Source of the DNA: Alphaproteobacteria bacterium | GTDB taxonomy: Bacteria; Pseudomonadota; Alphaproteobacteria; UBA7887 | Direction: 5' to 3' | Length of the DNA: 64,000 bases | Assembly: GCA_965242575.1 (NCBI GenBank) | Contig: OZ251461.1 | Span: 1,505,430-1,569,429 of the forward strand | Part shown: positions 1-50,544 of the stretch, piece by piece | How the letters are laid out: every line of letters starts with the position of its first letter | Numbering within the stretch: the first letter of the stretch is position 1 | The notes under the pieces: generated by a model | Seen by the model: only the letters and a program-made list of their open reading frames with translations | What the model was told of the DNA's origin: nothing | Database searches by the model: none | Program-made: the position numbers and the translations under genes

Positions 1-2109
1 CGCGGCTGGCGGTGTGGATCCACACCTTCGCGCCGGGCCTGCCGCTGTCGTTCCTGGACCGCAACCTCGTCCGCGGCAACGCGCTGGTGGGGGTCGGCGG
101 GCTGGACGAGATCCGCCGGAAGTTCGACGCAGCGGCGGGCACGTTTTTCGCGGCGGACGCGGAGACCCTGCTGGGCGCGGCGAAGAAGCCGCTGCGGCGG
201 CTGGCCAACATCGCCGACCGGACGGTGGCGGACATCGCCGCCGCGCGCGCGGCGGAGCGGGAGGCGCGGGCGGCGCTCGCCGACACCGAGGCGCTGTGCG
301 ACCTGGTCGCGGCGCAGCCGCTTTGCGACGACGAGCGGGTGGCCGGCTTCGCGTTCGAGGACTGGGCGCGCCGCGCCGGGTCCGCGGAGACGCGGGCGGC
401 CGCCGAGATCGCGAAGCGGGCGCTTGCGGGGCTGCACGCGCTGCACTTTCCGATCGCGTTCCCGGAAGTGTTCCTGCGCGAACGGCCGGGCTTCGATGTC
501 ATCGTCGGCAATCCGCCGTGGCAGGAGGCGACGGTCGAGGAGCATGCCTTTTGGGCGCGGCATTTCCCCGGACTGCGCGGTCAGACACAGCGCGCGCAGG
601 AGTCCGAGAAAGCCCGGTTGCGCGAAGGGCGCCCCGATCTGGTCGCCGCATGGCGGGCGGAGCGGGAAGAGATGGAACGGGTGAGAAAGGCGCTGATCGG
701 CGGCGCGTATCCCAGCATGGGAACGGGCGATCCCGATCTCTACAAGGCCTTTTGCTGGCGGTTTTGGCGTTTGAGCGCGGCGGAGGGCGGGCGCATCGGC
801 GTGGTGCTGCCGCGCAGTGCCCTCGCCGCCAAGGGATCGGCCGAATTCCGCCGGACGATTTTCGAATGCGCGGCGCAAGTCGACGTCACAGTCCTCAGAA
901 ATCGCAAGGGATGGGTTTTTGACGATGTGACGCCGCTGTACACCGTCGGCCTCGTCTGCGTCGCACGCGGCGAGGCGTCCGCGCGTTCGATCCGTTTGCG
1001 CGGACCCTACGCTTCGGAAGCGGCGTTTCGCGAGGGCGCGAACGCGCCGGCGGCGGCCTTCGACCGCGCCGATGTGCTAAAATGGAACGACACCGCCTCG
1101 CTGCCTTTACTGCCCAACGCGGATTCGATCGGGGTTTTCGCGCAGCTCCGCAAGGCGCCCCGCCTTGATGAGAACATAAAATCGCGGGGGGGGGGGGGGC
1201 GAAACAAGAACATTGGCGTGCGCGCCCCGACCGCGAGATGGACGCCACGTTACAGAAAGCGTTCATGGTTTTCGATCCATCGGAAACCGGTGGCGCACCC
1301 GGCCGGACACGGAACTCCACGCCACGGCGCAGAAACCACTCATGACGTTCGCGGGCAAAGACCGCGCCGACGGATACTGGCCCATTTACAAGGGCGAATC
1401 CTTCGACATATGGAACCCCGACACGGGAATCTATTACGCATGGGCCGATCCAGAACCGGTTCTCGACTGGCTTCAGCGCAAACGTCTGAAATCTGGCCAG
1501 AGCCGCCGCGACAGCCCGCATCGGGAGTTTCCCTTGAAATATTTGCGTAACCGCAACACGTTGCCATGCTTTGCGCCGCGAATCGCCTTTCGGGATATTA
1601 CTAACCGAACTAATCAGCGCACGGTCATTGCTTGTCTTGTGCCGCCGAAAGTGTTTATCGCAAATCAGGCTCCTTACCTGCTCTGGCCACGTGGTGACGC
1701 AAAAGATCAGGCATTTCTACTCGGAATCTTGTGTTCGATTCCGCTCGATTGGTATGCGAGGCGTTTCGTCGAAACGCACGTCAACTATTTCGTCTTCAAC
1801 CCGTTCCCGATCCCGCGCCCCGACCGCGAGGACGCGCGGTGGCGGCGCGTCGTGGAGCTCGCCGGGCGGCTGGCTTGCCCGGACGACCGCTTCGCGGGTT
1901 GGGCCGAGGCCGCCGGCGTCGGGTGCGGGCCATTGGCGGCGGGCGAGAAGGACGACATGATACACGAACTCGACGCCGTCGCCGCCCGCCTCTACGGTCT
2001 CGACGAACGGCAGCTCGTCCACATATTCGAGACTTTTCACGAAGGCTGGGATTTCGCCGCGCGGCTGGACGGCGTGCGCCGGCACTTCCGGCGTTGGGGG
2101 TCGCGATGA
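1..2109 (+). pseudogene. N6-adenine DNA methyltransferase, Eco57I/type IIG-like; 5'-partial at window edge; frame broken at a G14 tract (frameshifted or phase-variable)
   Basis: The frame of ORF 12..1550 is open back to nt 3 and carries ...LHFPIAFPEVF...GFDVIVGNPPWQ (motif IV NPPW). Sensible sequence ends at the G run 1186-1199. The conserved C-terminal part (WRTRPDTELHAT...WPIYKGESFDIWNPD...FNPFPIP) continues in the next frame as ORF 1213..2109. Confidence 0.8.
1186..1199. repeat. Homopolymeric G14 tract inside the methyltransferase coding region
   Basis: Counted directly: atcgc + 14 g + cgaaac. The upstream and downstream halves of the gene are in different frames across it. Confidence 0.95.
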
Positions 2110-3266
2110 GCGTTCGGGTCGACGTCAAACCGGAGTTGCTGCGCTGGGCGCGCGAGCGCGCGGGCGCGGACGTCGACGCGCTGGTCCGCAAATTCCCCAG
2201 ATACCGCGAATGGGAGGACGGCGAGGTTCGGCCGACCTACAGGCAGCTGGAGAATTTCGCCAAAACCGTTCACGCGGGGGTGGGGTACTTGTTCCTGTCG
2301 GAGCCGCCCGACGAGCCGTTCCCCATCCCGGACTTCCGCACCATGGGCGGCGGGCCCGTCGGGCGCCCGAGTCTGAACCTGCGGCATACGATCTATCTCT
2401 GCCAGGGGCGCCAGGACTGGTACCGGGAATATGCGCAAGCGGAGGACGAAGGCCCTCTCCCGTTCGTCGGTTCGGCGCGCCTGTCGGACGATGTCGAGGC
2501 GGCCGCCGCGCAGATGCGCCGCGCGCTTAAATTCGACCCGGACGAACGCCGCGAGATGCGGACGTGGGAGGAGGCGCTGCGCCGGTTCGTCGAGTCGGCG
2601 GAGGAGGCTGGCGTGCTGGCGATGGTGTCGGGCGTCGTCGGCAACAACACCCGCCGCAAGCTCGATCCGGAGGAATTCCGAGGTTTCGCGCTGGTCGACG
2701 ACTTCGCCCCCCTGGTGTTCGTCAACGGCGCCGACACCAAGGCCGCACAGATGTTCACGCTGGCGCACGAACTCGCGCATCTGTGGCTCGGCGAGACCGG
2801 CCTGTCCGACAGCAGCCTGGATGCGCTGCCCCGTCGGAAGGTCGAAAACTGGTGTAGTCGGGTCGCGGCGGAGCTACTCGCGCCGATCGAGATCGTGCGG
2901 GCGGAGTATCGGCCGGGCGAGGACTTGTCCGCCGAGTCGAGTCGGTTGGCGCGACGATTCAAGGTGAGCACCTTGGTAATCCTGCGCCGGATTTACGATA
3001 TCGAAGGCCTGCCGTATGATCGGTTCCGGCGGGCTTACGACGACGAGCTCGAACGTCTGCGCGCAATCCCGGGACGCGGCGGCGGGAATTTTTACGCGAC
3101 CCAGACCGCGCGCGTGGGCAAGCGGTTCGCGCATGCCGTGATCGCCGACACGCTTGGAGGGGGGACGACGTTTCGCGAGGCGTTCCAGCTGTTCGGGTTC
3201 TCCAAGACGGAGACTTTCAAGAAGTTGGCCGATAATTTGGGAGTAAGGCATGGCTTACCTGATTGA
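2106..3266 (+). CDS. ImmA/IrrE-family Zn metallopeptidase with N-terminal HTH-like region (COG2856 type)
   Basis: ATG 2106 overlaps the upstream stop (ATGA). HEXXH motif is HELAHLWLGE. The start was trimmed from ORF 1731..3266 to MSVRVDVKPELLRWARERAG. Confidence 0.85.
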   Translation: MSVRVDVKPELLRWARERAGADVDALVRKFPRYREWEDGEVRPTYRQLENFAKTVHAGVGYLFLSEPPDEPFPIPDFRTMGGGPVGRPSLNLRHTIYLCQGRQDWYREYAQAEDEGPLPFVGSARLSDDVEAAAAQMRRALKFDPDERREMRTWEEALRRFVESAEEAGVLAMVSGVVGNNTRRKLDPEEFRGFALVDDFAPLVFVNGADTKAAQMFTLAHELAHLWLGETGLSDSSLDALPRRKVENWCSRVAAELLAPIEIVRAEYRPGEDLSAESSRLARRFKVSTLVILRRIYDIEGLPYDRFRRAYDDELERLRAIPGRGGGNFYATQTARVGKRFAHAVIADTLGGGTTFREAFQLFGFSKTETFKKLADNLGVRHGLPD

Positions 3267-3756
3267 CGCGAACGTATTCATAGACGCGAAGAATCGATAC
3301 TATGGGTTCGATTTCTGCTCGGCGTTCTGGGATTGGGCGATCGCAGCCAACCGACGGGGGCTACTGCTCAGCATCGCCGAGGTTGGCGGGGAACTCCGGG
3401 CCGGTAACGACTCGCTCGCGGCATGGGCGGCGGCGCGGGACGCCGGTTTCTTCGCCGAGTCGTTAACCGAACGGAGCGCCTCCGCGGTTAAGGTCAGCAA
3501 CCAGGCGAACGCAATGAATTACAACGTCGTCGCCATAGAGGAATTCATGAAATCCGCCGATTTTCATCTGATTGCCTACGCGGACAAATACAGACACACG
3601 ATCGTCACCCTCGAAGCCGCTTCGCCCACGGGGGCGCGCGCGAAAAGGCGTGTCCTGATACCCGACATGTGCGCCGTGCTCGGTATCGCGTGCGTAACCC
3701 CCTTCGAAATGCTGCGCCGCGAGAACGCGCGTTTCGTGCTCGGCGCCGCGCCGTGA
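3250..3756 (+). CDS. DUF4411-family PIN-like protein (putative nuclease partner of ImmA)
   Basis: N-terminus MAYLIDANVFIDAKNRYYGFDFCSAFWDW is typical of DUF4411. It overlaps the ImmA gene by 17 nt. Confidence 0.75.
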   Translation: MAYLIDANVFIDAKNRYYGFDFCSAFWDWAIAANRRGLLLSIAEVGGELRAGNDSLAAWAAARDAGFFAESLTERSASAVKVSNQANAMNYNVVAIEEFMKSADFHLIAYADKYRHTIVTLEAASPTGARAKRRVLIPDMCAVLGIACVTPFEMLRRENARFVLGAAP

Positions 3757-6700
3757 CCGCCCGCCCGGACTTCATCGACAACCGCGGCGGCAACACGCTG
3801 GCGCGGGCGCTCGACGCGGCGCTCGGCGGCGCGGACGGGGGCGCGGCGGAAGGGGGCGGACCGGACGCGGTGCGCATCGCCACCGCGTTCTTCAACCCCG
3901 CCGGCTTCGCCCGGATCGCCGACCGGCTGGCCGGCGCGCGCGAGGTGCGGTTGCTGCTCGGCGCCGACCCGGCGCTCGCGGCGGCGGACGCGCGGCGGCG
4001 GCTGGACGAAACGCCGGAGGCGTTCGAACGGCGGCGCATGGCGGCGGGCCTGCGCCGCATGGAGGCGGCGCTGCGCCGCGAACGCGACGGCCTGCCGTTC
4101 GACCGGGCGAGCGGCGCCGCGCTGCGCAAGCTGGCCGCGGCCTTGCGCGCCGGCAATATGGAGGCGCGCCGCTACGAAAAGGCGTTCATGCACGCCAAGG
4201 CCTATGTCGTGACAGCGGAGGGCGGGACCTACGGCCGGCCCGAGGGCGTGATCGCCGGGTCGTCCAACCTGACCGACTCGGGGCTGACCCGCAACCTGGA
4301 GCTCAATCTGGGCCGCTACGACCGCCCGGTGGCGGAGCGGGCGCGGCGCTGGTTCGACGAACTCTGGGACGAGGCCGAACCTTGCGACCTCGCCGCGCTG
4401 TTCGAGGATTCGCTGCGGCTTTACACCCCGTGGGAGATTTTCCTTCGCGTGCTCTGGCGGCTCTACGGGGACGAGGCCGCGGCGGACGCGGCGGAGGACG
4501 ACGACCTGCCGCTGACCAGCTTCCAGAAGCACGGCGCGGCGCGGGCGCTGCGGCTGATCCGCGACACGGGCGGCGCGGTGGTCGCCGACGAAGTGGGGCT
4601 CGGCAAGACCTTCATCGCCGGCGAGATCATCCGGCTTTACCGCGAGCGGCGGCAGCGCGCGCTGCTGATCTGCCCGGCGGCGCTGCGCGACACCGTCTGG
4701 CGGCAATTCATCGCCCGGTTCCAGCTGTTCGTAGAATGCCTGTCGTTCGAGGAACTGGCGAACGACCCCCGGCTGGGCGGCGCGGGCGGGGAGAAGCTCG
4801 CGCGGCCGCTCGACGAATACCAGCTCGTCGTGGTGGACGAGGCCCACAACTACCGCAACCCCGGCGCGCCGACCCGCGCGGGGGCGCTGCGGCGGCTCCT
4901 GCGCGGGCCGCGGCGCGATCTTCTTCTTCTCACCGCCACGCCGGTCAACAACTCGCTGTGGGACCTTTACCACCTGCTGCGGTTCTTCCTCCGCCAGGAC
5001 GCGCATTTCGCCGACCGGGGCATACTCTCGATCCGCGGGCTGTTCGAAAGGGCGGCGCGGGAGGATCCCGCAAGCCTCGGTCCCGACACGCTGTTTCCGA
5101 TCGTCGACGCGACGACGGTGAAGCGGACGCGGCAGTTCGTGAAGAAGCATTACGCCGGCGACACGATCCCCGGCCCCGACGGCGCGCCGCTGCCCATCGA
5201 GTTCCCCCGGCCGCAAGCGATCGGCCTGCGTTACAATCTGGACGACCGCCTGCCGGGCTTTTTCGACCGGCTGGAGCGGGCGCTCGACCCCGACGGCGGC
5301 GAGGCCGCCGCCTTCGCGCGCTACACTCCGGAGGTTTGGCGCCGCGGCGGCGCCGACGAGGAGGAGGAGGCGCGCGCCCGGGCGACGGCGGGGCTGCTGC
5401 GCTCCGGCCTCCTCAAGCGCTTCGAGTCGTCGGCTTTCGCCTTCCGCCGGACGGCGGAAAAGATGACGCGCGAGCACGACGCGTTTCTCGCCGCGCTCGA
5501 CGCCGGCCACGTGGTCTCCACCGCGTTCATGAGGGAGCTGTCCGCCGACGACGAGGGGGCGTTCGAGGACGTCCTCGGCGCCACGGAGCACAAGGCGGAT
5601 GCGGCGCTCTACGACGTCGCGGGGCTGCGCGCGGCGGTCGCGCGCGACCGCGGGATTCTCGCCGCGCTCGCGGAGGAGGCCGGGAAGATCGCGCCGGACC
5701 GGGACCCGAAGCTCGAGGCGCTCGCCGGCGCGCTGGCCGGGATCGCGGAGCAGGCCGAACACGAGGCCGCGGACCCGGTCGACGAGGCGCAGAAGCGCAA
5801 GGTCCTGGTGTTCTCGTTCTTCGAGGACACGATAGCGTGGATCCGCGACTATCTCGCCGGGGCGCTGGAGACGCGGCCGGAGCTCGCCGCATATCGCGGC
5901 CGCATGGCGGCGGTCAGCGGTTCGGGCGAGCTCGACGACGTCTCGCGGCAAAAGGCGCTGTGCGGGTTCGCGCCCATGTCGATGGCGGAGCGGACCGAGC
6001 GCGCCGCCGGCGATTACGACATTCTGCTGTCGACGGACGTTCTGGCGGAAGGGGTGAACCTTCAGGATTGCCGGCACATCGTCAATTTCGACATGCCGTG
6101 GAACCCGATGCGGCTGGTGCAGCGGCACGGGCGGATCGACCGCATCGGCGGCCCGCACCGCCGCGTGTTCCTGCGGACGATCTTCCCCGCCGACCGGCTC
6201 GACCGCCTGCTCGATCTCGAACGGCGGATTCTCGACAAGTTGGCGCTGGCGGCGGCGAGCGTCGGCGTGGCGCCGCCGATCCCCGGCGCGGCGCGCGGCG
6301 GGCAGGTGTTCGCCGAAACCCGCGCCGAGATCGAGAAACTGATCGCGGAGGACTCCGCGCTCTTCGAACGCGGCGGCGCGGCCGGCGCCGCGCAGACCGG
6401 CGAGGAATACCGCCAGACGCTGCGCAAGGCGCTCGCCGACGGCGGCGGGCGCATCGCCAACCTGCCGTGGAAGATCGGTTCGGGAATGGTCCGGGGCGCA
6501 CGGCGCGGCGTGTTCTTCTGCGCCGCGGTGGGGCGGGACAGCGACCTGGAGCGCAACTACCTCCGCTTCGTCGACGCCGGCGACGACTGGCGCCCCGCGG
6601 CCGGCGACGGCGCGGTCGAGCGCGAGCGCGGCGCCTGCCTGCGCCTGATCGAATGCGCGGAGGACACTCCGACCCGACTCCCGGACATATTGCGGGATCG

Positions 6701-7109
6701 GGCGTACGACTTCTGGGAGGCGGCGCGCGACGACATATTGGCGGAATGGATGCGCGAGACCGACCCGGCGAACCTGCAACCCCGGGTCCGGCCGCTCAAC
6801 CATCGCGCGGCGGAGTTCGTTCGCGCGCATCCGCCGGCCGGCCTGCCGGACGAACGGGTGAACCGGGCGCTGGACGTTCTGGAGTCGCCGTGGCCGCGCC
6901 GCGAGGAAGTCCTGCTGCGCGGCTGGTTCGACGACGCGGCGCGCGGCGGCGGCGACCGATCGCGAATCCTCGTCGAGCGGATTCTCGAAACCGGCCTGGA
7001 GCCGGCGGAGCCGCCGCCGCCGCTGCCGCCGATCTCGCGCGGGGACATCGAACTCGTGTGCTGGATGGGGATCGAGGCGGAAGCCGCCGCGCCGCCCTAC
7101 ATGGCGTAA
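3753..7109 (+). CDS. PLD-family nuclease domain fused to SNF2/SF2 helicase
   Basis: GTG 3753 overlaps the DUF4411 stop (GTGA). There is a single HKD-like motif, FMHAKAYVV...IAGSSNLT. SNF2 motifs are DEVGLGKT, VVVDEAHNYRN, LLLTATPVNNSLWDL and QRHGRIDRIG. Confidence 0.85.
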   Translation: MTARPDFIDNRGGNTLARALDAALGGADGGAAEGGGPDAVRIATAFFNPAGFARIADRLAGAREVRLLLGADPALAAADARRRLDETPEAFERRRMAAGLRRMEAALRRERDGLPFDRASGAALRKLAAALRAGNMEARRYEKAFMHAKAYVVTAEGGTYGRPEGVIAGSSNLTDSGLTRNLELNLGRYDRPVAERARRWFDELWDEAEPCDLAALFEDSLRLYTPWEIFLRVLWRLYGDEAAADAAEDDDLPLTSFQKHGAARALRLIRDTGGAVVADEVGLGKTFIAGEIIRLYRERRQRALLICPAALRDTVWRQFIARFQLFVECLSFEELANDPRLGGAGGEKLARPLDEYQLVVVDEAHNYRNPGAPTRAGALRRLLRGPRRDLLLLTATPVNNSLWDLYHLLRFFLRQDAHFADRGILSIRGLFERAAREDPASLGPDTLFPIVDATTVKRTRQFVKKHYAGDTIPGPDGAPLPIEFPRPQAIGLRYNLDDRLPGFFDRLERALDPDGGEAAAFARYTPEVWRRGGADEEEEARARATAGLLRSGLLKRFESSAFAFRRTAEKMTREHDAFLAALDAGHVVSTAFMRELSADDEGAFEDVLGATEHKADAALYDVAGLRAAVARDRGILAALAEEAGKIAPDRDPKLEALAGALAGIAEQAEHEAADPVDEAQKRKVLVFSFFEDTIAWIRDYLAGALETRPELAAYRGRMAAVSGSGELDDVSRQKALCGFAPMSMAERTERAAGDYDILLSTDVLAEGVNLQDCRHIVNFDMPWNPMRLVQRHGRIDRIGGPHRRVFLRTIFPADRLDRLLDLERRILDKLALAAASVGVAPPIPGAARGGQVFAETRAEIEKLIAEDSALFERGGAAGAAQTGEEYRQTLRKALADGGGRIANLPWKIGSGMVRGARRGVFFCAAVGRDSDLERNYLRFVDAGDDWRPAAGDGAVERERGACLRLIECAEDTPTRLPDILRDRAYDFWEAARDDILAEWMRETDPANLQPRVRPLNHRAAEFVRAHPPAGLPDERVNRALDVLESPWPRREEVLLRGWFDDAARGGGDRSRILVERILETGLEPAEPPPPLPPISRGDIELVCWMGIEAEAAAPPYMA

Positions 7110-7139
7110 CGCGCGACCGCCGCCTCGTCCCATTCCAGG

Positions 7140-7208
7140 CCCGCGCCGGACGACGCGGCGATCACAGCGCCGGTTCTTCGCCGATTTGAGCGATTTCAGG
7201 ACTTTCAT
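7140..7208 (-). pseudogene. rpmJ: 5' stub of a type-B ribosomal protein L36 (rpmJ/ykgO-like) gene
   Basis: MKVLKSLKSAKNRRCDRRVVRRG matches the L36 N-terminus, with GGAGAG 7 nt upstream of the ATG. After about 23 codons the similarity is lost in all three frames. Confidence 0.5.
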
Positions 7209-7273
7209 GGCGCCTCTCCGAACGGCCCTGCCCGCCGCGCGGGGCGGCGCGCGTCAAGCGCCGGCGCCGGGCG

Positions 7274-8011
7274 TCAGTCCCCGTCGACCTCGGCGAGCAG
7301 GGCGCGGGCGCGGGCGCGGACGAGTTCGCCGTAGGCGTCCGCCGGCGGCAGCGCCAGCGCCTCGGCCAGCAGCTCGCGCGCGCGGCCTTCGTACTCGTCG
7401 TCGAGCGCCAGCAGGTTCTCCGCGTAGTCGAAGCGGACGACGACGGAGCCGGGCGCCAGCGCCAGGGCGCGCTCGTAATGCTCCAGCGCCGCCGATTCCG
7501 TCGCGCCGTAGAGCGTGCGCGCCATGAAGCCGCCGGCGGCGTCGACGATCCCCGCATGCCAGCCGGCCAGCGCCAGATGCGCGCGGGCGTGGTCCGGGTC
7601 CAGCGCCAGCGCCGTGTCCAGCGCCGCCTCGATTCTTTCGGCGAAACCCTCGGCGAACGCCGCCATCGAGCCGATGGCCTGCGCGTAGCGGCCCATCGCG
7701 TGCGCCGATTGCATGTGCGCCTCGGCGTTGTCGGCGTCGCGGCGGATCGCCTCCTCGGCCGCCGCCATCGCGCGCGCGAAAAGCTCGCGCCGCTCGTCCT
7801 CCGCCGCCAGGTGGAAGCCGTAGATGGCGAGGACGTCGGCGGCGAGCGCGTAGCCGTCGGAGCCGCCCGCCGCGGCGCCGATTTCGGCGGCCTCGAGGAA
7901 CCGCCCCCCGGCCGCGGCGGCGCGCGCCTCGTCCAGCGTCTGGCTCCAGGCGGGCGCGCCCGCCCACACCGGCGCCGCGGCGAACGCCGCGGCCGCCAAC
8001 AGCCGTTTCAC
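7274..8011 (-). CDS. Secreted TPR-like helical repeat protein
   Basis: GTG 8011 gives VKRLLAAAAFAAAPVWAGAPAWSQ (signal peptide). The rest is alanine-rich helical repeats. The upstream part of ORF 7274..8332 was rejected as R/G-rich filler. Confidence 0.6.
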   Translation of the reverse strand: MKRLLAAAAFAAAPVWAGAPAWSQTLDEARAAAAGGRFLEAAEIGAAAGGSDGYALAADVLAIYGFHLAAEDERRELFARAMAAAEEAIRRDADNAEAHMQSAHAMGRYAQAIGSMAAFAEGFAERIEAALDTALALDPDHARAHLALAGWHAGIVDAAGGFMARTLYGATESAALEHYERALALAPGSVVVRFDYAENLLALDDEYEGRARELLAEALALPPADAYGELVRARARALLAEVDGD

Positions 8012-8022
8012 GCCGGCGCCCC

Positions 8023-8418
8023 CTACTCCGCGCCGCCGCCGACCACGGCCTCGGCCTCGATCTCCACCTTCAGCTCCGGCAGCACGAGCGCGCTCACCTC
8101 GACCAGGGTCGAGGCGGGACGGCGGTCGCCGAAATACGCGATTCGCAACGGGTCGATCCGCGCCCGGTCGGAGATGTCGGTGAGGAAGACGGAGACCTTC
8201 ACGACATCGCCCGGCGCGCCGCCGGCGGCGCGCAGCACGGAGTCGAGATTGTCCAGCGCGACGCGGAACTGGTCCACCGCGTCGGCGGGGACGGCGCCGT
8301 CCGCGGTCATGCCGACCGTGCCCGAAATCCACACGCGGTCGCCGGCGCGGGTCGCGTGGCAGTAATGGCTGACCGGCTCCGGCTGCCCCGGGACCATGAA
8401 TCGGCGGATCGGCTGCAT
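8023..8418 (-). CDS. ridA: RidA/YjgF family reactive-intermediate deaminase
   Basis: 131 aa containing ...HYCHATRAGDRVWISGTVG...VKVSVFLTD...PASTLVEVSAL...VEIEA, typical of the RidA fold. Confidence 0.8.
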   Translation of the reverse strand: MQPIRRFMVPGQPEPVSHYCHATRAGDRVWISGTVGMTADGAVPADAVDQFRVALDNLDSVLRAAGGAPGDVVKVSVFLTDISDRARIDPLRIAYFGDRRPASTLVEVSALVLPELKVEIEAEAVVGGGAE

Positions 8419-8449
8419 GCGCGCCCCCTCGACATCGACCGGCGGAACC

Positions 8450-10012
8450 CTACCCCGCCGGCGGCGGCGGAGTCGACGCGCCCGTCTCGCCGCGCCTTCT
8501 CCGGTAAACGCGGACGCCGCCCTCGTCGTGAAACGGAGCGTAGTCGGCGGCGATCGCGCCGCGAAGGCGGGCTGCGTCCTCGCCCTCGAGGTACCACGGA
8601 ACGGGATTCGCCGCGTCCGTCACCAGATACGCCGGACGGGACGCCAGCGTTCCCCGCAGCAGGTTGCGGTCGATATACCCCGCGGCGGCCAGCGGCGCGA
8701 CCGTTTCCGGCTTCGCCCAATTGCTCGGATGAACCAGTTTCGAGGGCGGGTCCGTGTCCAGGTACCAATAGACCAGATGATGCGTGAGCGCCCAGACCGC
8801 ATCGCCGGGCCGGCGATCCTCGGCGATGGCCCGGGCGGCGCGGCGGACGAAATGCCCGTCGAACGCGCCGGCCGGATCCAGCGCCAGCCGCGCGGCCGGC
8901 GGCCCCGTCTTCCACGCAGCCTCCGCGAGGCACGCCGCAACGAGGACATGCGCGAACGGCCGCCACCGGGCCCGCGCCCGGGCCCAGGCGAGCGCGCGGG
9001 CGCCGAGAACGGCGAGGATCGGAAAGAGCTGCAACCAGTAATGCCGATGGCCGGCGTCGTCGCCGATCAGGACGGAGGCGGCGACCGCTCCGCACACGAG
9101 AAGCAGAAGCGCCGCCTCCCGCCGTTCGCCGGGCGCGCCGCGCCGCGCGCTCCGGAACGCCGCCCAGAGCCCCGCGGCGCCGGCGAGCGCGAAGGGGCCG
9201 GCGAGATGGGGTTTCCAGAGAATCGTGTCGAACCACCGGACGGCGAACACGCCGAGCGCGCGTGCGGGATCGCTCGAGGCTTCGGCGAAGGCGAGGGGAG
9301 CGACGACGACCGCGAGCCACAGTTCGGCGAGCGCGCCGGCGCGCCAGTACACCAGGACCGTGAGCGCCGGCGGGACGGCGCCGGCAAGCGCGAAAACGGC
9401 GGCGGCCCGGAAGCTCGCCCGCCCCCAGGGGGCGGCCGCCGCCAGCCAGACGGCGAACGCCGCCGCGACGGGGAACAGGTTGGCGCGGGTGAGCACGGCG
9501 ACGGAGACCAGCGCGCCCGCCGCCGCCGCGGCCCAGAGCCGATCGCCGCGCGCAAGGCAAAGCCACAGCGCGGCCATGAACGCCGCCGCGGCCGGCAGTT
9601 CCGTGTACGTCGGCTGGCCGAGGCGGGTGGAGAAGACGGCCACGCATGCGAGCGCCGCGAGGCCGGCCGAAACCGGATCGGTCCGCCGCCGCGCGATCGC
9701 GAAGACGGCGACGCAGGAAACCGCGACGCAGGCGGCGCCGAGCAGCCGCACCGAGACCAGCGACTCGCCGAACGCCGCCATCGCGCCGGCGAGCAGGAAG
9801 AAGATCATCGGCGGCTTGATGTCGAAGAGCGCGACGTAGGGCAGGCGGCCGTCGAGCACGCTCGCCGCGACCAGGACGAAGGTGCTCTCGTCCCAGTCGA
9901 TTACCTCCTGCTCGAGACTCCCGACTCGCGTCGCGCCCACCGCGAGGACGATCGCGGCGGCCCAGAACGCGCCGGAGGCCGCCGCGCCCGATCTTGGCGA
10001 ATTCGTCCCCAC
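8450..10012 (-). CDS. Polytopic membrane glycosyltransferase, ArnT/PMT-like
   Basis: Many hydrophobic helices. The N-terminal loop WDESTFVLVAASVLDGRLPYVALFDIKPP resembles GT39/GT83 enzymes. The GTG 10012 start is chosen and uncertain. Confidence 0.6.
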   Translation of the reverse strand: MGTNSPRSGAAASGAFWAAAIVLAVGATRVGSLEQEVIDWDESTFVLVAASVLDGRLPYVALFDIKPPMIFFLLAGAMAAFGESLVSVRLLGAACVAVSCVAVFAIARRRTDPVSAGLAALACVAVFSTRLGQPTYTELPAAAAFMAALWLCLARGDRLWAAAAAGALVSVAVLTRANLFPVAAAFAVWLAAAAPWGRASFRAAAVFALAGAVPPALTVLVYWRAGALAELWLAVVVAPLAFAEASSDPARALGVFAVRWFDTILWKPHLAGPFALAGAAGLWAAFRSARRGAPGERREAALLLLVCGAVAASVLIGDDAGHRHYWLQLFPILAVLGARALAWARARARWRPFAHVLVAACLAEAAWKTGPPAARLALDPAGAFDGHFVRRAARAIAEDRRPGDAVWALTHHLVYWYLDTDPPSKLVHPSNWAKPETVAPLAAAGYIDRNLLRGTLASRPAYLVTDAANPVPWYLEGEDAARLRGAIAADYAPFHDEGGVRVYRRRRGETGASTPPPPAG

Positions 10013-27618: not shown

Positions 27619-28393
27619 GCGCGCGGAGCTTGAGGAAGACCTCGCGCGGGGCGGGGTCGTCGGGCAGGTCGGGGAAAGTCTGGCGCAGGCGGGCCACGAC
27701 GCCGGGGCTGTGCAGGCGGAAGAAGGCGTTGACCTCCTTCTCCAGCGCCAGGGTGGTGACCTTGGCGGCGTGCGGGTCCTGGCCCTCGATCTCGCCGCGG
27801 AGCGCCCGCGCGCGGGCGTTGCCGGGTTCGCGGTCGAGGGTGAAGTCCAGGTTGTTGGCGATGTAGTCGTGCCCCGGATAGACCAGCGTCCCGCCGGGCA
27901 GGCGGGCGAGCTGGGCGGCGAAGGTCTCGTAGAGCTCCTCCGGATGGCCGCCGTTGTGGCAGTTGCCGGCGCCGGCGTTGAACAGCGTGTCGCCGCAGAA
28001 CAGCGCCGGCGCGTCGGTCCGCGACAGCAGGCAGACGTGGCTCATGGTGTGGCCGGGGGTGTCGAGCGCCTCGAGCTCCACCGTCCGCCCGACCTTCACC
28101 ACGTCGCCGGCGGCGAGGCCCACGTCGATCCCGGGAATGCGCCCCTTCGCGCCGGCGTGGGCGAGGAGCTTCGCGCCGGTGGCGGCGATGGTGGCTTCGT
28201 TGCCGCCGGTGTGGTCGCCGTGCTCATGGGTGTTGAGGACCTGGGTTATGTCCCATCCCTCGGCCCGGGCGGCGGCGAGGCAGCGGCGGTGGTCGAGCGG
28301 GTCGACCGCCAGCGCCTCCCCGGTCTCCGGGCAAGCGATGAGGTAGTTGAAGTTGCGGTAGGCGTTCTCGGTGTAGAGCTGCTTGACGATCAT
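27602..28393 (-). CDS. gloB: Hydroxyacylglutathione hydrolase (MBL fold)
   Basis: MIVKQLYTENAYRNFNYLIACPETGEALAVDP...THEHGDHTGGN...TPGHTMSHVC. Confidence 0.85.
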   Translation of the reverse strand: MIVKQLYTENAYRNFNYLIACPETGEALAVDPLDHRRCLAAARAEGWDITQVLNTHEHGDHTGGNEATIAATGAKLLAHAGAKGRIPGIDVGLAAGDVVKVGRTVELEALDTPGHTMSHVCLLSRTDAPALFCGDTLFNAGAGNCHNGGHPEELYETFAAQLARLPGGTLVYPGHDYIANNLDFTLDREPGNARARALRGEIEGQDPHAAKVTTLALEKEVNAFFRLHSPGVVARLRQTFPDLPDDPAPREVFLKLRALRNDW

Positions 28394-28989
28394 CGCCGAT
28401 CCTCTTGTGGTGTCGGGTCTGGTTCCGTTTGGGCGCACTTTTGCAAAAATTCCTTCAGCGCGTCCAGATCGGGCGCCTCCAGATTCCAATGTCGGCGGTC
28501 ACTGTAATTCCTGTCCTTCTCTTTTGGGCCATTACCTACCGCTTCGCAATAAGAGAAAATCCGCGCCTTGGAATCCGGCATATTGTAATTTTGACAAATA
28601 TTCCGCAAGCACTTCTGATACTCAGTAAAACAATCATGTATGCGCCTATGTCGTTCCGTGGCTATTTTCTCCAAAAGAGTTTCCAAATTTCCAGAACGCT
28701 TGTTATCCGGAAAAAGAAACCAGTAATTGACAGGGAGATTGAGTCGCGCCTTCTCCACTTCGATTTCATCTAGCCGACCGGAGATATCCGCATCCGCGTC
28801 TAATATGATCGCTATGCGCTTTCCAGCATCATAGCTCCTCTGGATCCGGCGTTGCGCCGCCGACAATTTCGATATCCCGCCCCCGATGACTTCCGACTGG
28901 AAGATCGACAAGCCGATACGATCCAGAAAGGCGTCGAGAAACAATTTATCGTTATCTCCTTCGACGAATATGACACAGGTCACAGTCAT
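28390..28989 (-). CDS. Small TOPRIM-like protein (DUF4276/DUF3226/DUF4435-type fold), AT-rich cassette gene 2
   Basis: VIFVEGDNDKLFL (TOPRIM Glu) and AIILDADAD (DxD). 199 aa. The stop lies inside the ATGA that starts gloB. The start overlaps the ATPase stop by 1 nt. Confidence 0.7.
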   Translation of the reverse strand: MTVTCVIFVEGDNDKLFLDAFLDRIGLSIFQSEVIGGGISKLSAAQRRIQRSYDAGKRIAIILDADADISGRLDEIEVEKARLNLPVNYWFLFPDNKRSGNLETLLEKIATERHRRIHDCFTEYQKCLRNICQNYNMPDSKARIFSYCEAVGNGPKEKDRNYSDRRHWNLEAPDLDALKEFLQKCAQTEPDPTPQEDRR

Positions 28990-30167
28990 TATCGAATCTC
29001 TATATCGTGTTCGATGTTATGAGCGAATTGCTCGTAATCGTACCGGTAAGAACGCACATTTCCTTCCTGATCTCGCGCAAGAACGAAACACTTCGTTGCA
29101 GATCGAATGGCTGCGAACTCCTCCCCTTTCAAAATGTTCCTCAAGCACTCAAGAGCATCCATGCTATGCGTAGTAACAAAAATTTGCACTCCTCTCGCGA
29201 CAGACAGGGTCAGAATTGCCTCCAAAAGCGTTCGCATTCCCGTGTAATGAATTCCGTCCTCGATTTGGTCAATCAAAACCATTCTAGATTTATCCAGAAT
29301 GCATTGTGACACGATGCTGGCCGCGCGAATTATGCCGCTCCCGAATAGGTTGATGGGCAACATCTTCTTCAGCCCGATATCCAGGAATATCTTATCTCCC
29401 GGCGCGGCTATATCTTGGACTTGCCCATCTATGTTCTTAAGAATCTCGACCAGATCGTATCTCTTTTTATTGACTATCAATTCCGAGAGAGAATCGACAT
29501 CATAGTCAAATCCAGACACAAAAAACCGGGACAGGATGAGGTTTCGCTGTGCGAATTCAGACAAAGCCTGCGGAGAGGGATGCGCAACGTATCCCACACT
29601 CCTATCTTCGTGTGGGAAAAAATGACACGTAACCGACGAAGGATCTTTCGCCGACTCGCTTTTCAATTCGGCGTCGTACCGAAAAACACGGGGCCGATTA
29701 ACTTCCGACGATGACAAGGAAGTGTCAGGCATAGCCCCTTTGTTGTCAGTGGTTTTGCGATTCAGATCCTGTTGGTTCATAATTTCGGACAAGTCCTCCG
29801 TCGACGCGCTAATGGACAACTTCCGCCGCTCCCCCCGGGCAGGAACGGTAGCCGCCAACTCGCTGCGTTCGTCGATGTTCAGATTGTGAAGCATGTTGAA
29901 CAAGTCGTCCTGTGTAAGAACGATGTAACGCCTCATATTCTGGGTTCTGATAACCAGTTCTTGGTTTCCTATGCCGGCGAGGAGGTGGATCGCCTCCATA
30001 ACCGTCGTCTTTCCGGTATCGTTGGCGCCCAAAATAACGTTGAATGCCCCAAGCCCATCCAGTTCGATGCTCCGAAGCCCACGGAAATGGCGGATGGAAA
30101 CCGCTTCGAAGTGATGATCATTTGGCACGGACGGCATCTCGTCGCGCGTTTCCGGCGATGCGATCAT
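28989..30167 (-). CDS. ABC/SMC-like AAA_21-type ATPase, AT-rich cassette gene 1
   Basis: Walker A ILGANDTGKTT, signature-like LFGSGIIRA, Walker B MVLIDQIEDGIH, H-loop VTTHS. ATG 30167 sits in an ATGA with the caiB stop. An alternative internal start is MPSVPN at 30137. Confidence 0.8.
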   Translation of the reverse strand: MIASPETRDEMPSVPNDHHFEAVSIRHFRGLRSIELDGLGAFNVILGANDTGKTTVMEAIHLLAGIGNQELVIRTQNMRRYIVLTQDDLFNMLHNLNIDERSELAATVPARGERRKLSISASTEDLSEIMNQQDLNRKTTDNKGAMPDTSLSSSEVNRPRVFRYDAELKSESAKDPSSVTCHFFPHEDRSVGYVAHPSPQALSEFAQRNLILSRFFVSGFDYDVDSLSELIVNKKRYDLVEILKNIDGQVQDIAAPGDKIFLDIGLKKMLPINLFGSGIIRAASIVSQCILDKSRMVLIDQIEDGIHYTGMRTLLEAILTLSVARGVQIFVTTHSMDALECLRNILKGEEFAAIRSATKCFVLARDQEGNVRSYRYDYEQFAHNIEHDIEIR

Positions 30168-31354: not shown

Positions 31355-32013
31355 CACGCCCCTCCGACATGCGGGAATTCGCGGCCGGGGTAGTTGAAGC
31401 GCATGGCTTCGCGGTAGGCGGGACGTTCGGCGATGCGGGCGCGCCAGGAGTCCGTCTCCGGCGGCAGGGGGATGCCGTACATGTCCGCCCAGTCGAGGCA
31501 GGTGGCGAGGAGGATGTCGGCGGGGCCGAACGCGCCCATCAGCCACGGCGCGGCGCGGGCCACGCGCGGCGCCATGGCGCGCGCCTGCTGGAGGAAGTAT
31601 TCCCGGGCCGACTCCACCGCGCCCGGCGCCGCGCCGTAGATGTGCTTGAGGCCGTCGTGGCGGCGGATGAGGTAGAGGCTGTGGGCGTCGAGTTCGGTCA
31701 TGACGAACCAGCACCATTCCGCGAGCCGGGCGCGCTCGCCGGCGTCGGCGGGGCGGAGGAAGCCGTCGGGAAGCGGGAAGCGCTCCGCCAGGTAGAACAC
31801 GATGGCCGCGCTTTCGGTGAGGACGAGTTCGCCGTGGCGCAGCGTCGGGATTTTGCCGCGCGGGTTGAGCGCGAGATACTCCGCCGTCTGCGTCTCGCCG
31901 GTGCGCGAGCCGATGGGGTGCGTGGTGTATGCGAGGCCGAGTTCGCGCAGCATCCAGTGCACGCGCATGGTGCGCGTGCTGGAGATTCCCCAGACCTCGA
32001 CCGGCTCCGGCAT
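31354..32013 (-). CDS. Glutathione S-transferase
   Basis: YLALNPRGKIPTLRHGELVLTESAAIVFYLAE (GST N-terminal domain). Confidence 0.85.
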   Translation of the reverse strand: MPEPVEVWGISSTRTMRVHWMLRELGLAYTTHPIGSRTGETQTAEYLALNPRGKIPTLRHGELVLTESAAIVFYLAERFPLPDGFLRPADAGERARLAEWCWFVMTELDAHSLYLIRRHDGLKHIYGAAPGAVESAREYFLQQARAMAPRVARAAPWLMGAFGPADILLATCLDWADMYGIPLPPETDSWRARIAERPAYREAMRFNYPGREFPHVGGA

Positions 32014-32061
32014 GGCGCGCAGTGTAACGCCGCCGGGCGGGCCGGCGCAAGCGGCGTCAAG

Positions 32062-33747
32062 TCACCGGCCCGCGGCGATCAGCTCCTCGCTGAGCGGGTT
32101 CGCCCGCCGCGCCACCAGCAGCTCGAGATGCACCGTGGCGCGGGTCATGCCGCAATAGAGCCGTCTTCGCCAATCCTCCATCCGTCCGGGATCGGGGTCG
32201 ACGTCGCACAGGATCACCGCCGGCGCCTGCTGTCCCTTGAAACGGTGGATGCTGTCGAAGAGTATCTGTCCATTCGACATCTTCTGGTTGCCGGATCGAT
32301 CGTAACCTTGGAATCGGCTGAGGGTGTAGCCGCCAAGAGGCCGCGACGAACCGCCGACGGCCGAGCGTCCGACACCGCGCATCGTGAGCAGGGTTATGTC
32401 CTCGGGGCGGAATCCAAGCCTTCGCAACTCGGTGACGCGCGCCGCCGCCAGTTTCACCTGGTCCGCGGGATCGTCGTAAGGCCAGACTTTCACGTCGAAG
32501 CCGGCGACGGGGCTGGCGCACTCGAACTCGAACGACGGAAGTACCGTTCTTATGAAGCGCGCAATGGCCTCCGGCGAGCGATAGTTGCGCCGCGCGCGCA
32601 AGCCGACGACACCGGCCCTGTCGCGCGGCTCGGTTTGTCGGATGTTCTGATCGGAATCTTCCAACCAAAGAAAATCATGGTCGTCTTTTAGGAAAAGATC
32701 GAGCACCTCAAACCATTCTGGCTTGAAATCCTGCGCTTCATCTATGATCAATCTATCGAACCTCCAGCTTTCGGGCACTCCGTCCTCGATCGCCCGCTCC
32801 TTCACGCGATCCTCCACTTCCGACCAGAACGTATCCTGATTCTGGAGATGATCGCGCACCCGGTCGAAATCCAGAGTGTCGCCGCGATCCTCCAGGAAGC
32901 TGACGCAGAACCCGTACCAGGTCTGAACCAGACCGTCGTCGGGGACTCTTTCATTCAAATTCTCGCGTAACGACCGGTTAAAGCAGAGCATAAGCGAACG
33001 CTTGCCGGACTCCGCCGCGCGCGTATAAAAGTGGGTTGCGATCTCGGTTTTACCGCAACCGGCAACACCCTTCACACGCAACCGCAGGGGCGACATCTCG
33101 ATGTCGCCGATTCTATCGACGAGCTCCGCGCTCAACCTGGCGAAAGATCGATCCTGCTCGTCCTTACAGGCATGCACGTCGGGAACGACTTCGAATGTCT
33201 GGCGGAAGAAGCGGTGCACGGCCTCGGCGAAGTCGTCGTCCGCTCCGGTTCCCGCTCCCCATGTGTCGGCGACGATACGGGCGAGATCGCGGCGGCGCGT
33301 TTTGTCGACTATCCGTTCCGCGTCGAGGCCGGCCGCGTTCAGTCTGGCTATGCGGTAATCCGGACAGTAAAGCAGATAATCGACAGACAGTCCGCGTCGT
33401 CCAGCGGCGGCCTGCCGGAATTTCCCGCGGATGGAGTCCAGGTTGCGATGAATTTGGGTCGAAACGGATTTCACCTTGTCTGGATAATTTTTCTTGAGAC
33501 CGTCCGCCGTTTCGACGAGGGGTCCGTTTTTCTGCTCAATGACGACGATTCGTCCATCGCGGTTGACCACAACGAAATCGATTTCCCCGAACGTCGTGCG
33601 ATCCGCTTTCGCGCGGGTCCAGTGAACGCCGTGATAGATCGTGAATTCGGGACCCAGACCGGCCTCGAGATGCTCCAGCGTGGCCATTTCGCCGCCATGT
33701 GCGCTGGAACGCGCGAACCTGATCACTCCAGGAATTGCGTAGGCCAT
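32062..33747 (-). CDS. NERD nuclease-related domain fused to SF1 (UvrD/AAA_30-like) helicase
   Basis: NERD core is GEIDFVVVNRDGRIVVIEQKNG. Walker A GVAGCGKT, Walker B LIIDEAQDF, C-terminal IHRFKGQQAPAVIL...MTRA. Visibly lower GC than the neighbouring genes. Confidence 0.8.
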   Translation of the reverse strand: MAYAIPGVIRFARSSAHGGEMATLEHLEAGLGPEFTIYHGVHWTRAKADRTTFGEIDFVVVNRDGRIVVIEQKNGPLVETADGLKKNYPDKVKSVSTQIHRNLDSIRGKFRQAAAGRRGLSVDYLLYCPDYRIARLNAAGLDAERIVDKTRRRDLARIVADTWGAGTGADDDFAEAVHRFFRQTFEVVPDVHACKDEQDRSFARLSAELVDRIGDIEMSPLRLRVKGVAGCGKTEIATHFYTRAAESGKRSLMLCFNRSLRENLNERVPDDGLVQTWYGFCVSFLEDRGDTLDFDRVRDHLQNQDTFWSEVEDRVKERAIEDGVPESWRFDRLIIDEAQDFKPEWFEVLDLFLKDDHDFLWLEDSDQNIRQTEPRDRAGVVGLRARRNYRSPEAIARFIRTVLPSFEFECASPVAGFDVKVWPYDDPADQVKLAAARVTELRRLGFRPEDITLLTMRGVGRSAVGGSSRPLGGYTLSRFQGYDRSGNQKMSNGQILFDSIHRFKGQQAPAVILCDVDPDPGRMEDWRRRLYCGMTRATVHLELLVARRANPLSEELIAAGR

Positions 33748-33816
33748 CGTTCACCGTCCCTCTGCGAAGCTCCGACTCCGTTTTAGCAGCCCGCCCGCCA
33801 GCAGTCCATATATCCG

Positions 33817-35004
33817 TCAGAACCGCCACAACGCCGCGCCGACCAGCGCGGCGAAGGCGGCGAAGGCCGTGAACGCCAGGCCCCAGCCGCCGGCGGCGAC
33901 GAGGGCGCTGAAGGCGGCGGGGCCGGCGACGACGCCCAGAAAGCTGAACCCGACCGCGCCGCCCGTCGCCACGCCCACCCGGTCCGCCGGAACCGCGCGC
34001 AGTATCTCGGCGAGATAGACACCCGGCCAGCCGGCGACGACGAAGCCCGCCAGCGCCATGAAACCGGCGATCTCCGCGAACCGCCAGGACGAATCGAGGC
34101 CCGCGGCCGCGAGCAGGACCAGCGCCATGCCGACGGCGACGAGCCGCAGCACAAGGCGGGCGCCGCCCGCGCGGTCGCTCAGCCAGCCGAGGGCGACGCG
34201 GGCGATGGCGCCGGCGGCCTGCATGACGGCGAAGGCCAGACCGGCGCGCGCCAGTCCCAGGCCGCCGGCCTCGACGAGCCAGGCGGCCGACACGGCGAAG
34301 ACGGAGGACTGGATCGCCGCGAACGAAAACGCGGCGGCGGTCAGCGGCCGCAGCCGCTCGTGGCCGAGCGCGAAGGCGACGGCGCGGAGCGGCGTGCGCG
34401 CAGACAGCGGGAAGTCCGGCGCGCGGTCGTCGTCGAGCCGCGCCCGCAGCGGCGCGATGCACGCCGCCGCCGCCAGCAGCGCGCCGGCGGTGCAGGCCAG
34501 GGCGCCGCGCCAGCCGAACGCCGCCGCGGCCGCCGGCGCCGCGAGGCCGGCCAGCAGCCCGCCGAGCGGCACGGCGCTCTGCTTCAGCGACAGCACGATC
34601 CCGCGGCGGTGGGCGGGGGTGACGCGGGCGAGGATGTGGCTCGCCGCCGGAGTGGCGAGGCCGTAGCCCATGCCGGTCGCCACCGCGAGCAGGGCCATGC
34701 CGATGAGGGGGGCGGGCGCGCTGGCGGCGAGCGCCGCCGCGGCGGCGGCGAGGGCGAGCTGGCTGCACCGGATCGCGCCCAGGCGGCGGACCAGCGCGCC
34801 GCCCATGAGCGCGCAGACGATGGCGCCGGCGAACACCAGCGACGAATAGAAGCCGACCGCGCTGGCGCGCACCCCGTAGGCCGCCGCCGGCATCGGGGCG
34901 AGGACGGGGATCGCGCTCACCGCCATCGCGACCATCGCTTGCGTGAGCATGGTCGCGGCGAGGGCGCGCGCCACGCCCGGCGCGGCCCCGGTTCGCGCCG
35001 TCAT
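33817..35004 (-). CDS. MFS transporter
   Basis: 395 aa with about 12 hydrophobic helices and an alanine/leucine-rich composition. Confidence 0.75.
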   Translation of the reverse strand: MTARTGAAPGVARALAATMLTQAMVAMAVSAIPVLAPMPAAAYGVRASAVGFYSSLVFAGAIVCALMGGALVRRLGAIRCSQLALAAAAAALAASAPAPLIGMALLAVATGMGYGLATPAASHILARVTPAHRRGIVLSLKQSAVPLGGLLAGLAAPAAAAAFGWRGALACTAGALLAAAACIAPLRARLDDDRAPDFPLSARTPLRAVAFALGHERLRPLTAAAFSFAAIQSSVFAVSAAWLVEAGGLGLARAGLAFAVMQAAGAIARVALGWLSDRAGGARLVLRLVAVGMALVLLAAAGLDSSWRFAEIAGFMALAGFVVAGWPGVYLAEILRAVPADRVGVATGGAVGFSFLGVVAGPAAFSALVAAGGWGLAFTAFAAFAALVGAALWRF

Positions 35005-35013
35005 CGCGCCGGG

Positions 35014-39916: not shown

Positions 39917-40010
39917 CGGGGAACCCCCTGCCCTGATATAAGTCCTTGTCCAAGAACACTATATCACAGGCAGGACCCCGGTGCACTCAAAACTATGAGA
40001 AATTCGAGCT

Positions 40011-50523: not shown

Positions 50524-50544
50524 CCGGCGCTCCCCGGAGTCCGC

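Follow-up and report, generated by a model that had tools for sequence, protein, structure and literature searches.

Four co-directional genes at the start of a 64-kb stretch of DNA (about 72% G+C; hereafter the window) from an alphaproteobacterium of the lineage UBA7887 (assembly GCA_965242575.1, contig OZ251461.1, positions 1,505,430 to 1,569,429) raise two questions. The genes occupy nt 1–7109 of the window on the plus strand and encode an N6-adenine methyltransferase, an ImmA/IrrE-type zinc peptidase with a helix-turn-helix (HTH), a PIN-like protein of the DUF4411 family, and a protein that joins an HKD nuclease motif of the phospholipase D (PLD) type to an SNF2 motor (HKD-SNF2). The original prediction treated all four as one restriction-like system, and a run of G in the methyltransferase gene as a defect to be repaired. 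Whether the four genes belong together, and whether the run of G is a defect, are questions that relatives of the locus help to answer. The conserved unit is two genes, the large methyltransferase and HKD-SNF2, which are predicted to work by a restriction-like mechanism. The locus is probably a composite, horizontally mobile defence operon, in which this two-gene core is combined with optional cargo and a contingency locus.

Relatives of HKD-SNF2 were sought in about 185,000 species-level genomes, one genome per species, and 537 of these encode one. Eighty loci were sampled from the 537 genomes for the counts of core and cargo genes. The window lacks the 5′ part of the methyltransferase gene and its own upstream DNA, and upstream content was read from relatives. 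A full-length methyltransferase gene lies upstream on the same strand at 66 of the 80 loci; it is cut by a contig end at about nine more, and four loci are without it. The two core genes are directly adjacent at 39 loci and are separated by an insert at 38. When every other open reading frame (ORF) in the ±10-kb flanks was clustered all-against-all, no family outside this cargo slot was common to more than seven loci. The suggestion that upstream genes may belong to the operon thus holds for the rest of the methyltransferase, but nothing else is conserved in the upstream DNA of the relatives.

By record, the hosts are Alpha- and Gammaproteobacteria, Acidobacteriota, Gemmatimonadota, Rhodothermales, Latescibacterota, Spirochaetia, Bdellovibrionales and a Prochlorococcus. 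Many of the lineages of metagenome-assembled genomes (MAGs) among them are, judging from their names, presumably typical of marine sponge microbiomes (Arenicellales, Rhodothermales, Longimicrobiales, Latescibacterota, Bryobacterales and 'Candidatus Tethybacter'). The pair is also present on plasmid pHLAC01 of Halorubrum lacusprofundi and plasmid pJCM6399 of Mycobacterium gallinarum, with methyltransferase homologues of 45% and 41% identity, respectively; RefSeq names the plasmid pairs 'hypothetical protein' and 'helicase-related protein'. Only three full-length relatives were found in IMG/VR, indicating that the system is not typically phage-borne.

The cargo slot is occupied in several ways. 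Inserts with an ImmA homologue were found at 30 of the 80 loci and inserts with both ImmA and DUF4411 at 25, so that the four-gene order, whose conservation had been proposed as a check, does recur. Elsewhere the slot holds other cargo, including an Avs1b-like protein (1.6e-42), Ppl (8e-125), an HNH protein, SDH-type ClpP-like proteases and Schlafen/AlbA_2 proteins; one slot contains a full-length Ppl followed by a Schlafen/AlbA_2 protein. Together with the adjacency of the core genes at 39 loci, this speaks against counting all four genes as one system. At locus L051 (nt 2135–9835), ImmA is followed by a 2005-residue Avs1b-like STAND protein with an N-terminal endonuclease domain and there is no DUF4411; at L042 (nt 3806–9823), ImmA is likewise followed by an Avs1b-like STAND NTPase of about 2010 residues. 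The Avs1b-like protein in place of DUF4411 at these loci suggests that ImmA can partner various effectors. In two Rhodothermales loci, L055 (nt 5618–9505) and L058 (nt 6062–9513), three tandem ImmA paralogues precede a single DUF4411.

The ImmA protein of the window matches Pfam Peptidase_M78/IrrE (8.6e-15) and, in its peptidase region, the PADLOC models CapP (1.1e-10) and RmrA (1.6e-10). Its HEXXH motif is at least 90% conserved across 27 ImmA loci. DUF4411 matches its Pfam family over the full length (4.7e-41), with D6, E48, D104 and E122 conserved in 27 loci. A HEXXH peptidase with an HTH (a weak Pfam match to HTH_31, E=0.016) therefore lies directly upstream of a DUF4411 with four acidic residues, as in an HTH-ImmA/DUF4411 module. 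Residues 8–346 of ImmA match chain 9vzy_A of the PDB, 'HTH cro/C1-type domain-containing protein' (1e-32), and DUF4411 matches chain 9vzy_D of the same entry, 'DUF4411 family protein'. The co-crystallised homologues indicate that the two families form a physical complex. The complex is solved in PDB 9VZY / 9VZZ, and no publication describing it was found in the literature library searched. With respect to RosmerTA, the RmrA models match the peptidase as given above, and DUF4411 matches no PADLOC model, RmrT models included. An exact-sequence lookup with the DUF4411 of the window returned no matching contig.

HTH-DUF955 together with DUF4411.1 was predicted to be a toxin-antitoxin-type module, with operons found widely among bacteria (Matelska et al. 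2017, PMC5499597). The pair in the window combines these two families in that order; the published module is described as standing alone, but here it is set within an operon resembling restriction-modification (RM) operons and is translationally coupled to it. The ImmA-DUF4411 pair is optional cargo, a putative toxin/antitoxin-like pair of its own lodged in the core. Defence genes embedded in RM-like hosts are documented, and PrrC is the classic case (Payne et al. 2024, bioRxiv 10.1101/2024.01.29.577857). As with PrrC in the EcoprrI type I RM operon, a latent RNase-type effector would lie in the same orientation between the modification/specificity gene and the motor-nuclease gene. Unlike PrrC, the effector is a PIN-like DUF4411 and not an ABC-ATPase anticodon nuclease, its keeper would be an HTH-ImmA protein, the host system is another one, and a functional coupling is putative here.

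The junctions of the four genes are as originally described. The TGA of gene 1 and the ATG of gene 2 share ATGA at nt 2106–2109; the DUF4411 ATG at nt 3250 gives a 17-nt overlap with the end of ImmA, whose stop codon is nt 3264–3266; and the GTG start of HKD-SNF2 at nt 3753 overlaps the DUF4411 stop codon (GTGA, nt 3753–3756). The −4 overlap between methyltransferase and ImmA is kept in 16 of 26 related loci and that between DUF4411 and HKD-SNF2 in about 22 of 27. Their recurrence shows that the four-gene arrangement is beyond chance. Together with the four-gene order at 25 of the 80 loci, it also argues for an integrated four-component system, in which ImmA might, for example, sense single-stranded DNA or damage made by HKD-SNF2, or phage inhibition of HKD-SNF2, and free DUF4411. 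ImmA/IrrE-type proteases sense damage or single-stranded DNA elsewhere, CapP being the instance matched here. We regard such integration as unlikely. The core is complete without the pair at the 39 loci with adjacent core genes, the slot takes unrelated known systems, and ImmA of L051 pairs with the Avs1b-like protein. A recombination break lies between DUF4411 and HKD-SNF2, and ImmA and DUF4411 form a complex of their own and are widespread as free-standing operons (Matelska 2017). As cargo of a two-gene core, ImmA-DUF4411 would be a second-line abortive-infection module, co-expressed through the stop/start overlaps and probably independent.

The methyltransferase of the core is larger than the plain Eco57I-like enzyme first proposed. 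A tblastn search of the window with the 1344-residue homologue of L003 gave 67% identity over query residues 678–1069, and gene 1 is the tail of a type-IIG-family giant of about 1344 residues, of which the window holds the last 667 or so (about 678–1344). Pfam Eco57I (PF07669) is matched at 1.8e-10, with motif IV, NPPW, at nt 510–521. Motif I, DIAMGSGHF, precedes motif IV, an order consistent with a gamma-class N6-adenine methyltransferase. The two parts in the window match PADLOC PDLC03620, REase_MTase_IIG, at profile positions 697–1094 (N-part) and 1100–1360 (C-domain). Residues 1–520 of the full-length protein have no Pfam match (E up to 10) and no PDB match, and no invariant Lys is present in the first 380 or so residues of the homologue alignment. 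The full methyltransferase profile gave trivial matches alone against PDB sequences, and a homologue search for the N-terminal half returned only fragments of at most 685 residues.

HKD-SNF2 carries a single HKD ahead of a complete SNF2 motor in one polypeptide, and profile searches agree with the original description on this point. More generally, the four domain calls are upheld by Pfam, PADLOC and NCBIfam profiles, with the HTH of ImmA as the weak one. PLDc_2 covers residues 40–205 and Helicase_C extends to about nt 6150, and the C-terminal 300 or so residues have no assignment. The motifs are encoded at nt 4191–4268 (HxK...GSSN), nt 4596–4610 (Walker A, GLGKT) and nt 4836–4847 (DEAH). In an alignment of 23 homologues, H147-x-K149...G169-S-S-N172, GLGKT, DEAH, TATP and QRHGRIDRIG are invariant. 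The family comprises more than 120 clusters of at least 65% identity over the full length. The best PADLOC match is C3a139, an 'HKD+Snf2' cluster known near type III CRISPR loci (7.5e-51, as against 8.9e-24 for the HmaA model). RapA is the best PDB sequence match, and the PLD region matches chain 7clg_A, deposited as 'Putative helicase', which we take to be SauUSI. An AF2 model from a shallow alignment had a pLDDT of 55.6 and was not used as evidence; Foldseek returned generic SF2 and PLD folds only.

In the mechanism proposed for the core, the methyltransferase would mark host DNA and most likely also give sequence recognition. HKD-SNF2 would be an ATP-driven translocase on double-stranded DNA, and unmodified DNA would be cut after dimerisation or motor collision, by a cleavage logic like that of type III, type ISP and MANTIS enzymes. 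One HKD is half an active site, as established for Nuc and BfiI-type PLD nucleases; with its single HKD, HKD-SNF2 would thus have to dimerise to cut. A hypermutable tract in the methyltransferase gene would be lethal if the nuclease acted alone, so that restriction probably depends on the presence of the methyltransferase protein, a requirement also known from type I, type III and MANTIS systems.

An alternative for the core is a self-sufficient type IIG RM enzyme with an N-terminal nuclease, accompanied by an independent or auxiliary HKD-SNF2 that may be modification-dependent in the manner of SauUSI. The full-length methyltransferase matches REase_MTase_IIG end to end with 1018 bits, and the PLD region matches 7clg_A. 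This reading appears a little less probable still than the integrated system. The two genes are paired in nearly every locus, often with a stop/start overlap, a nuclease family could not be detected in the N-terminal 520 residues, and a methylation-dependent nuclease tied to a methylase would self-destruct. Cooperation of the methyltransferase with HKD-SNF2 therefore remains the preferred reading of the core.

PADLOC has no model that places the pair in a named system, in keeping with the earlier impression of a restriction-like locus without an existing name, and none of its models matches the genes in the flanks of L003 and L004. Class 1 DISARM resembles the locus in having an Eco57I-like methyltransferase, an SNF2 helicase and a PLD nuclease, but its nuclease DrmC is a separate protein, whereas PLD is fused to SNF2 here. 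Neither DrmA nor DrmB (DUF1998) had been seen in the window; relatives with complete upstream DNA are likewise without them, since the annotated flanks of L003 and L004, the Pfam lists of L003, L004 and L005, and the neighbour clusters of the 80 loci contain neither. The NCBIfam models for DrmD (168.8 vs 610 bits), DrmD_b (102 vs 950) and DrmC (21.3 vs 133) score far under their cut-offs, as does the DpdE model on HKD-SNF2. A reduced or degenerate class 1 DISARM (DrmMI, DrmD and DrmC) that has lost DrmA and DrmB is thus very improbable, despite PADLOC matches to DrmMI (3.6e-28) and DrmD (6.2e-40) and a weak DrmC match on the PLD domain, as REase_MTase_IIG and C3a139 are the better models for methyltransferase and helicase.

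The other candidates were rejected as well, and the locus did not turn out to be an ordinary DISARM, BREX or type III variant, an outcome for which the original prediction had left room. For BREX, no PglZ or BrxC is present in the annotated flanks of L003 and L004, and the PglX models match weakly (2e-07). Type III RM systems combine a beta-class Mod, which has an internal TRD, with a Res that joins an SF2 motor to a C-terminal PD-(D/E)xK nuclease; here the methyltransferase shows the gamma-class order and belongs to the Eco57I family, and the nuclease is an N-terminal HKD on SNF2. Type-2 BREX-related (DUF499-centred) systems and Hma contain an N6-methyltransferase and an HKD-Swi2/Snf2 (RapA-like) protein, and require a DUF499 AAA+ ATPase and DUF3780 (Rakesh & Krishnan 2026, PMC12839542). 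The N-terminal HKD, the Swi2/Snf2 (RapA-like) helicase and the N6-methyltransferase are all found in the present core. The proposed RM-like logic is similar too, and genes are often embedded between core genes in those systems. No DUF499 or DUF3780 was found in the L003 and L004 flanks or the recurrent neighbour clusters. Type-1 BREX-related systems, which we have taken to include Gao_RL/MANTIS, have a helicase-nuclease with a C-terminal PD-(D/E)xK and not an N-terminal HKD (Rakesh & Krishnan 2026, PMC12839542). By its description, MANTIS / Gao_RL (bioRxiv 10.64898/2026.09.23.753747) is also set apart by its need for the AAA+ protein MtsA and the co-regulator MtsB.

The nearest precedent is a set of Cj0031-like type II RM genes beside a coding sequence for PLD+SNF, listed as inversion targets (Milman et al. 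2023, PMC9881135, Table 3). By description, these loci have in common with ours a large Eco57I-family RM/methyltransferase protein, a single PLD-SNF2 polypeptide, and a methyltransferase gene that is the target of programmed variation. They vary by DNA inversion, whereas the variation here lies in a poly-G tract and a frame-offset duplication; that paper gives the pairing no name, function or embedded cargo.

The run of G that interrupts the methyltransferase gene, G14, is the sole homopolymer of at least 8 nt within the window. It is followed by two copies of an 18-codon element, the most conserved motif of the methyltransferase, which start 77 nt apart. As assembled, the gene runs into a 'third' frame; G13 or G16 would fuse it to copy 2, and G12 or G15 would read copy 1. 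The same design was identified in 18 other loci from Alpha- and Gammaproteobacteria, Longimicrobiales and Bryobacterales, where the tract is poly-G (poly-C in one), 8–30 nt long, and at the same codon. The copies are 77 or 74 nt apart in 19 of 19 loci; therefore they never share a frame. Among 18 loci, 70% of the differing codons of copy 1 are synonymous in its own frame versus 6–10% in the other frames, and for copy 2 the values are 59% versus 4–14%. By this measure purifying selection acts on each copy in the frame that belongs to it. There is no frame in which both copies are read, from which it follows that both products must have been made and have come under selection. The tract is thus not a defect awaiting repair.

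Tract length and frame vary among the loci. Four of the 19 are fused via copy 2, seven read copy 1 and then stop, and eight, the window included, run into the third frame; all three states also occur among short tracts of G8–G10. L004 has G16 and L005 has G30 in flanks that are about 98% identical. With a homopolymer inside an ORF that differs in length between close relatives and alters the frame, the gene has features of a simple-sequence contingency (phase-variable) locus. Runs of at least nine G or C number 25 in 272 kb of methyltransferase genes and 5 in 1.21 Mb of flanks, a 22-fold higher density, with 16 of the 25 at the tract codon.

Copy 1 always carries 'REMD' and copy 2 always 'xELH'; in unsplit relatives, either class can be found as a single copy. 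Where loci with the duplication could be placed in the C-domain tree, they group in one clade, which suggests a single origin followed by horizontal spread. In JGI metagenomes, a degenerate poly-G plus copy-1 pattern had one match (L086, G11), and the window's own tract as a DNA pattern had none.

Further G/C runs of 9–14 nt were observed in the methyltransferase genes of L021 (nt ~7501–7510), L039 (nt 6127–6135), L059 (nt 7702–7715), L035 (nt 6223–6235), L069 (nt 1833–1842), L081 (nt 6407–6417), L036/L037 (nt 9689–9697) and L033 (nt 6691–6703). They lie at about residues 155, 188, 398, 514, 640, 817 and 1240, and most coincide with a frame change. The methyltransferase gene seems to attract homopolymer tracts in general.

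Downstream of the copies, the C-domain ORF starts with an ATG at nt 1342 that overlaps the stop codon of the copy-1 frame (ATGA). An alternative form of 298 residues would start from TTG at nt 1213. Most of the closest 120 database relatives of the C-domain are stand-alone proteins of about 250–260 residues. Its AF2 model (pLDDT 68, first 57 residues disordered) was not used as evidence and gave no Foldseek match at E<1.

Our tentative proposal is that the tract and the offset duplication constitute a conserved, horizontally spread three-state recoding cassette, operating by DNA or RNA-polymerase slippage, and not a simple ON/OFF switch. In the first state, a fused methyltransferase with the 'xELH' motif of copy 2 would be made. 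In the second, the enzyme would be split, the large subunit ending in 'REMD' of copy 1 and the 255-residue C-domain being translated separately via ATGA. In the third, the protein would be truncated at the tract. Given that either motif class can stand alone in unsplit relatives, the switch could toggle enzyme properties such as specificity or the coupling to HKD-SNF2. In type IIG genes of Campylobacter and Helicobacter (e.g., cj0031/32), a poly-G tract in the gene switches between fused and truncated products. Unlike these ON/OFF switches of AT-rich pathogens, the present tract is tied to a frame-offset duplicate and is found mostly in GC-rich uncultured bacteria.

Another possibility is that the tract arose through an error of sequencing or assembly, or is a mutation that disables a decaying gene, the locus then being a pseudogene remnant. 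This hardly deserves credence, even though poly-G artefacts are known from two-colour Illumina chemistry, long homopolymers are error-prone and the window copy is out of frame. About 20 independent assemblies, which represent at least three phyla, have the tract at this codon, always with the 77/74-nt offset duplication, G/C runs are enriched in the gene, both copies are under selection in their own frames, and the short, reliable tracts show all states.

The features of the operon are listed in Table 1.

Table 1. Features of the operon in nt 1–7109 of the window and of the near-identical block at its 3′ end.
Feature	Position (nt)	Strand	Remarks
Eco57I/type-IIG-family N6-adenine methyltransferase, residues ~678–1072 of ~1344	1–1185	+	Frame 3; tblastn, Pfam, PADLOC
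Poly-G tract G14, candidate hypermutable/slippage site	1186–1199	+	Homopolymer shared with relatives at the same codon
Copy 1 of duplicated element, WRARPDREMDATLQKAFM	1214–1267	+	Frame 2, 'REMD' class; stop TGA 1343–1345
Copy 2 of duplicated element, WRTRPDTELHATAQKPLM	1291–1344	+	Frame 1, 'xELH' class
Methyltransferase C-terminal domain, stand-alone 255-residue ORF	1342–2109	+	64% identity to L003 residues 1068–1344
HTH-ImmA/IrrE (M78) zinc metallopeptidase, 386 residues, HEXXH 2766–2780	2106–3266	+	Predicted regulator/antitoxin of the next gene
DUF4411 PIN-like nuclease, 168 residues	3250–3756	+	Predicted toxin/effector; Pfam DUF4411
HKD(PLD) nuclease–SNF2 translocase, 1118 residues	3753–7109	+	PLDc_2, SNF2-rel_dom and Helicase_C
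Block 97.8% identical (nucleotide) to metagenome contigs L001 and L002	3703–7149	+	blastn

The operon is a mosaic. The near-identity to L001 and L002 is limited to the last block of Table 1, which ends inside the 3′ end of DUF4411 and 40 nt past the HKD-SNF2 stop codon. In L001, the DUF4411 beside the block has only 47% protein identity to that of the window, and the genes downstream are different ones. The block ends, nt 3703 and nt 7149, are likely recombination or mobility boundaries. Over nt 3–7106, the G+C content at third codon positions is 0.85 for the methyltransferase N-part, 0.71 for the C-domain, 0.83 for ImmA, 0.76 for DUF4411 and 0.92 for HKD-SNF2. The drop falls exactly across the poly-G/duplication junction, suggesting a recombination joint.

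In L001 (nt 4907–8455, minus strand), a DprA-like/LDcluster4 gene and a DEAD/ResIII helicase come after the module; at the same place the window has TPR, PMT_2 glycosyltransferase and amidase genes. Patches of low G+C at nt 28001–30000 (0.53), 32001–34000 (0.63) and 38001–40000 (0.59), in a background of about 0.72–0.75, may be further islands. Strong AT skew (+0.26 to +0.36 in 2-kb bins) was observed at nt 8001–10000, 34001–36000 and 50001–52000. Scanning the entire window against Rfam gave no match.

Several points weigh against the reading of the locus as a composite defence operon with a contingency locus. No published experiments on any member of the two-gene family were found, and methylation, cleavage and phage protection are predictions from domains. 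The methyltransferase may carry a nuclease of its own, as the PADLOC family name 'REase_MTase_IIG' implies. Long homopolymers are unreliable in MAG consensus sequences, so that tract lengths may be wrong there, above all G22–G30, and the near-even 7:4:8 split of copy-1, fused and third-frame states is also expected from random length error. A universal NTG start of the 298-residue ORF2 after the tract was considered and is weakened by CTG in several Longimicrobiales.

The locus is best described as a minimal variant of the methyltransferase plus motor-nuclease defence family, hosting a known predicted toxin-antitoxin module. The pairing of a methyltransferase with PLD-SNF2 has already been seen (Milman 2023) but was neither named nor studied. 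At least 537 species-level genomes out of the roughly 185,000 surveyed carry the two-gene unit, yet no PADLOC model names the pair, and PADLOC would call the methyltransferase alone a type IIG enzyme. If the core restricts DNA, it would be a minimal methyltransferase plus HKD-SNF2 relative of DISARM, BREX-related systems and MANTIS whose mechanism could be dissected with two proteins. The slot is a new host system for mining embedded cargo, and its collection of known defence systems (Avs1b-like, Ppl) lends 'guilt-by-embedding' support to ImmA-DUF4411 as a defence module. The frame-switch cassette is apparently undescribed. The combination of a poly-G tract with a duplication would be a new route to frame-dependent protein variants and, if true, a three-state switch across at least three phyla of mostly GC-rich uncultured bacteria, in which it would be evidence of contingency loci.

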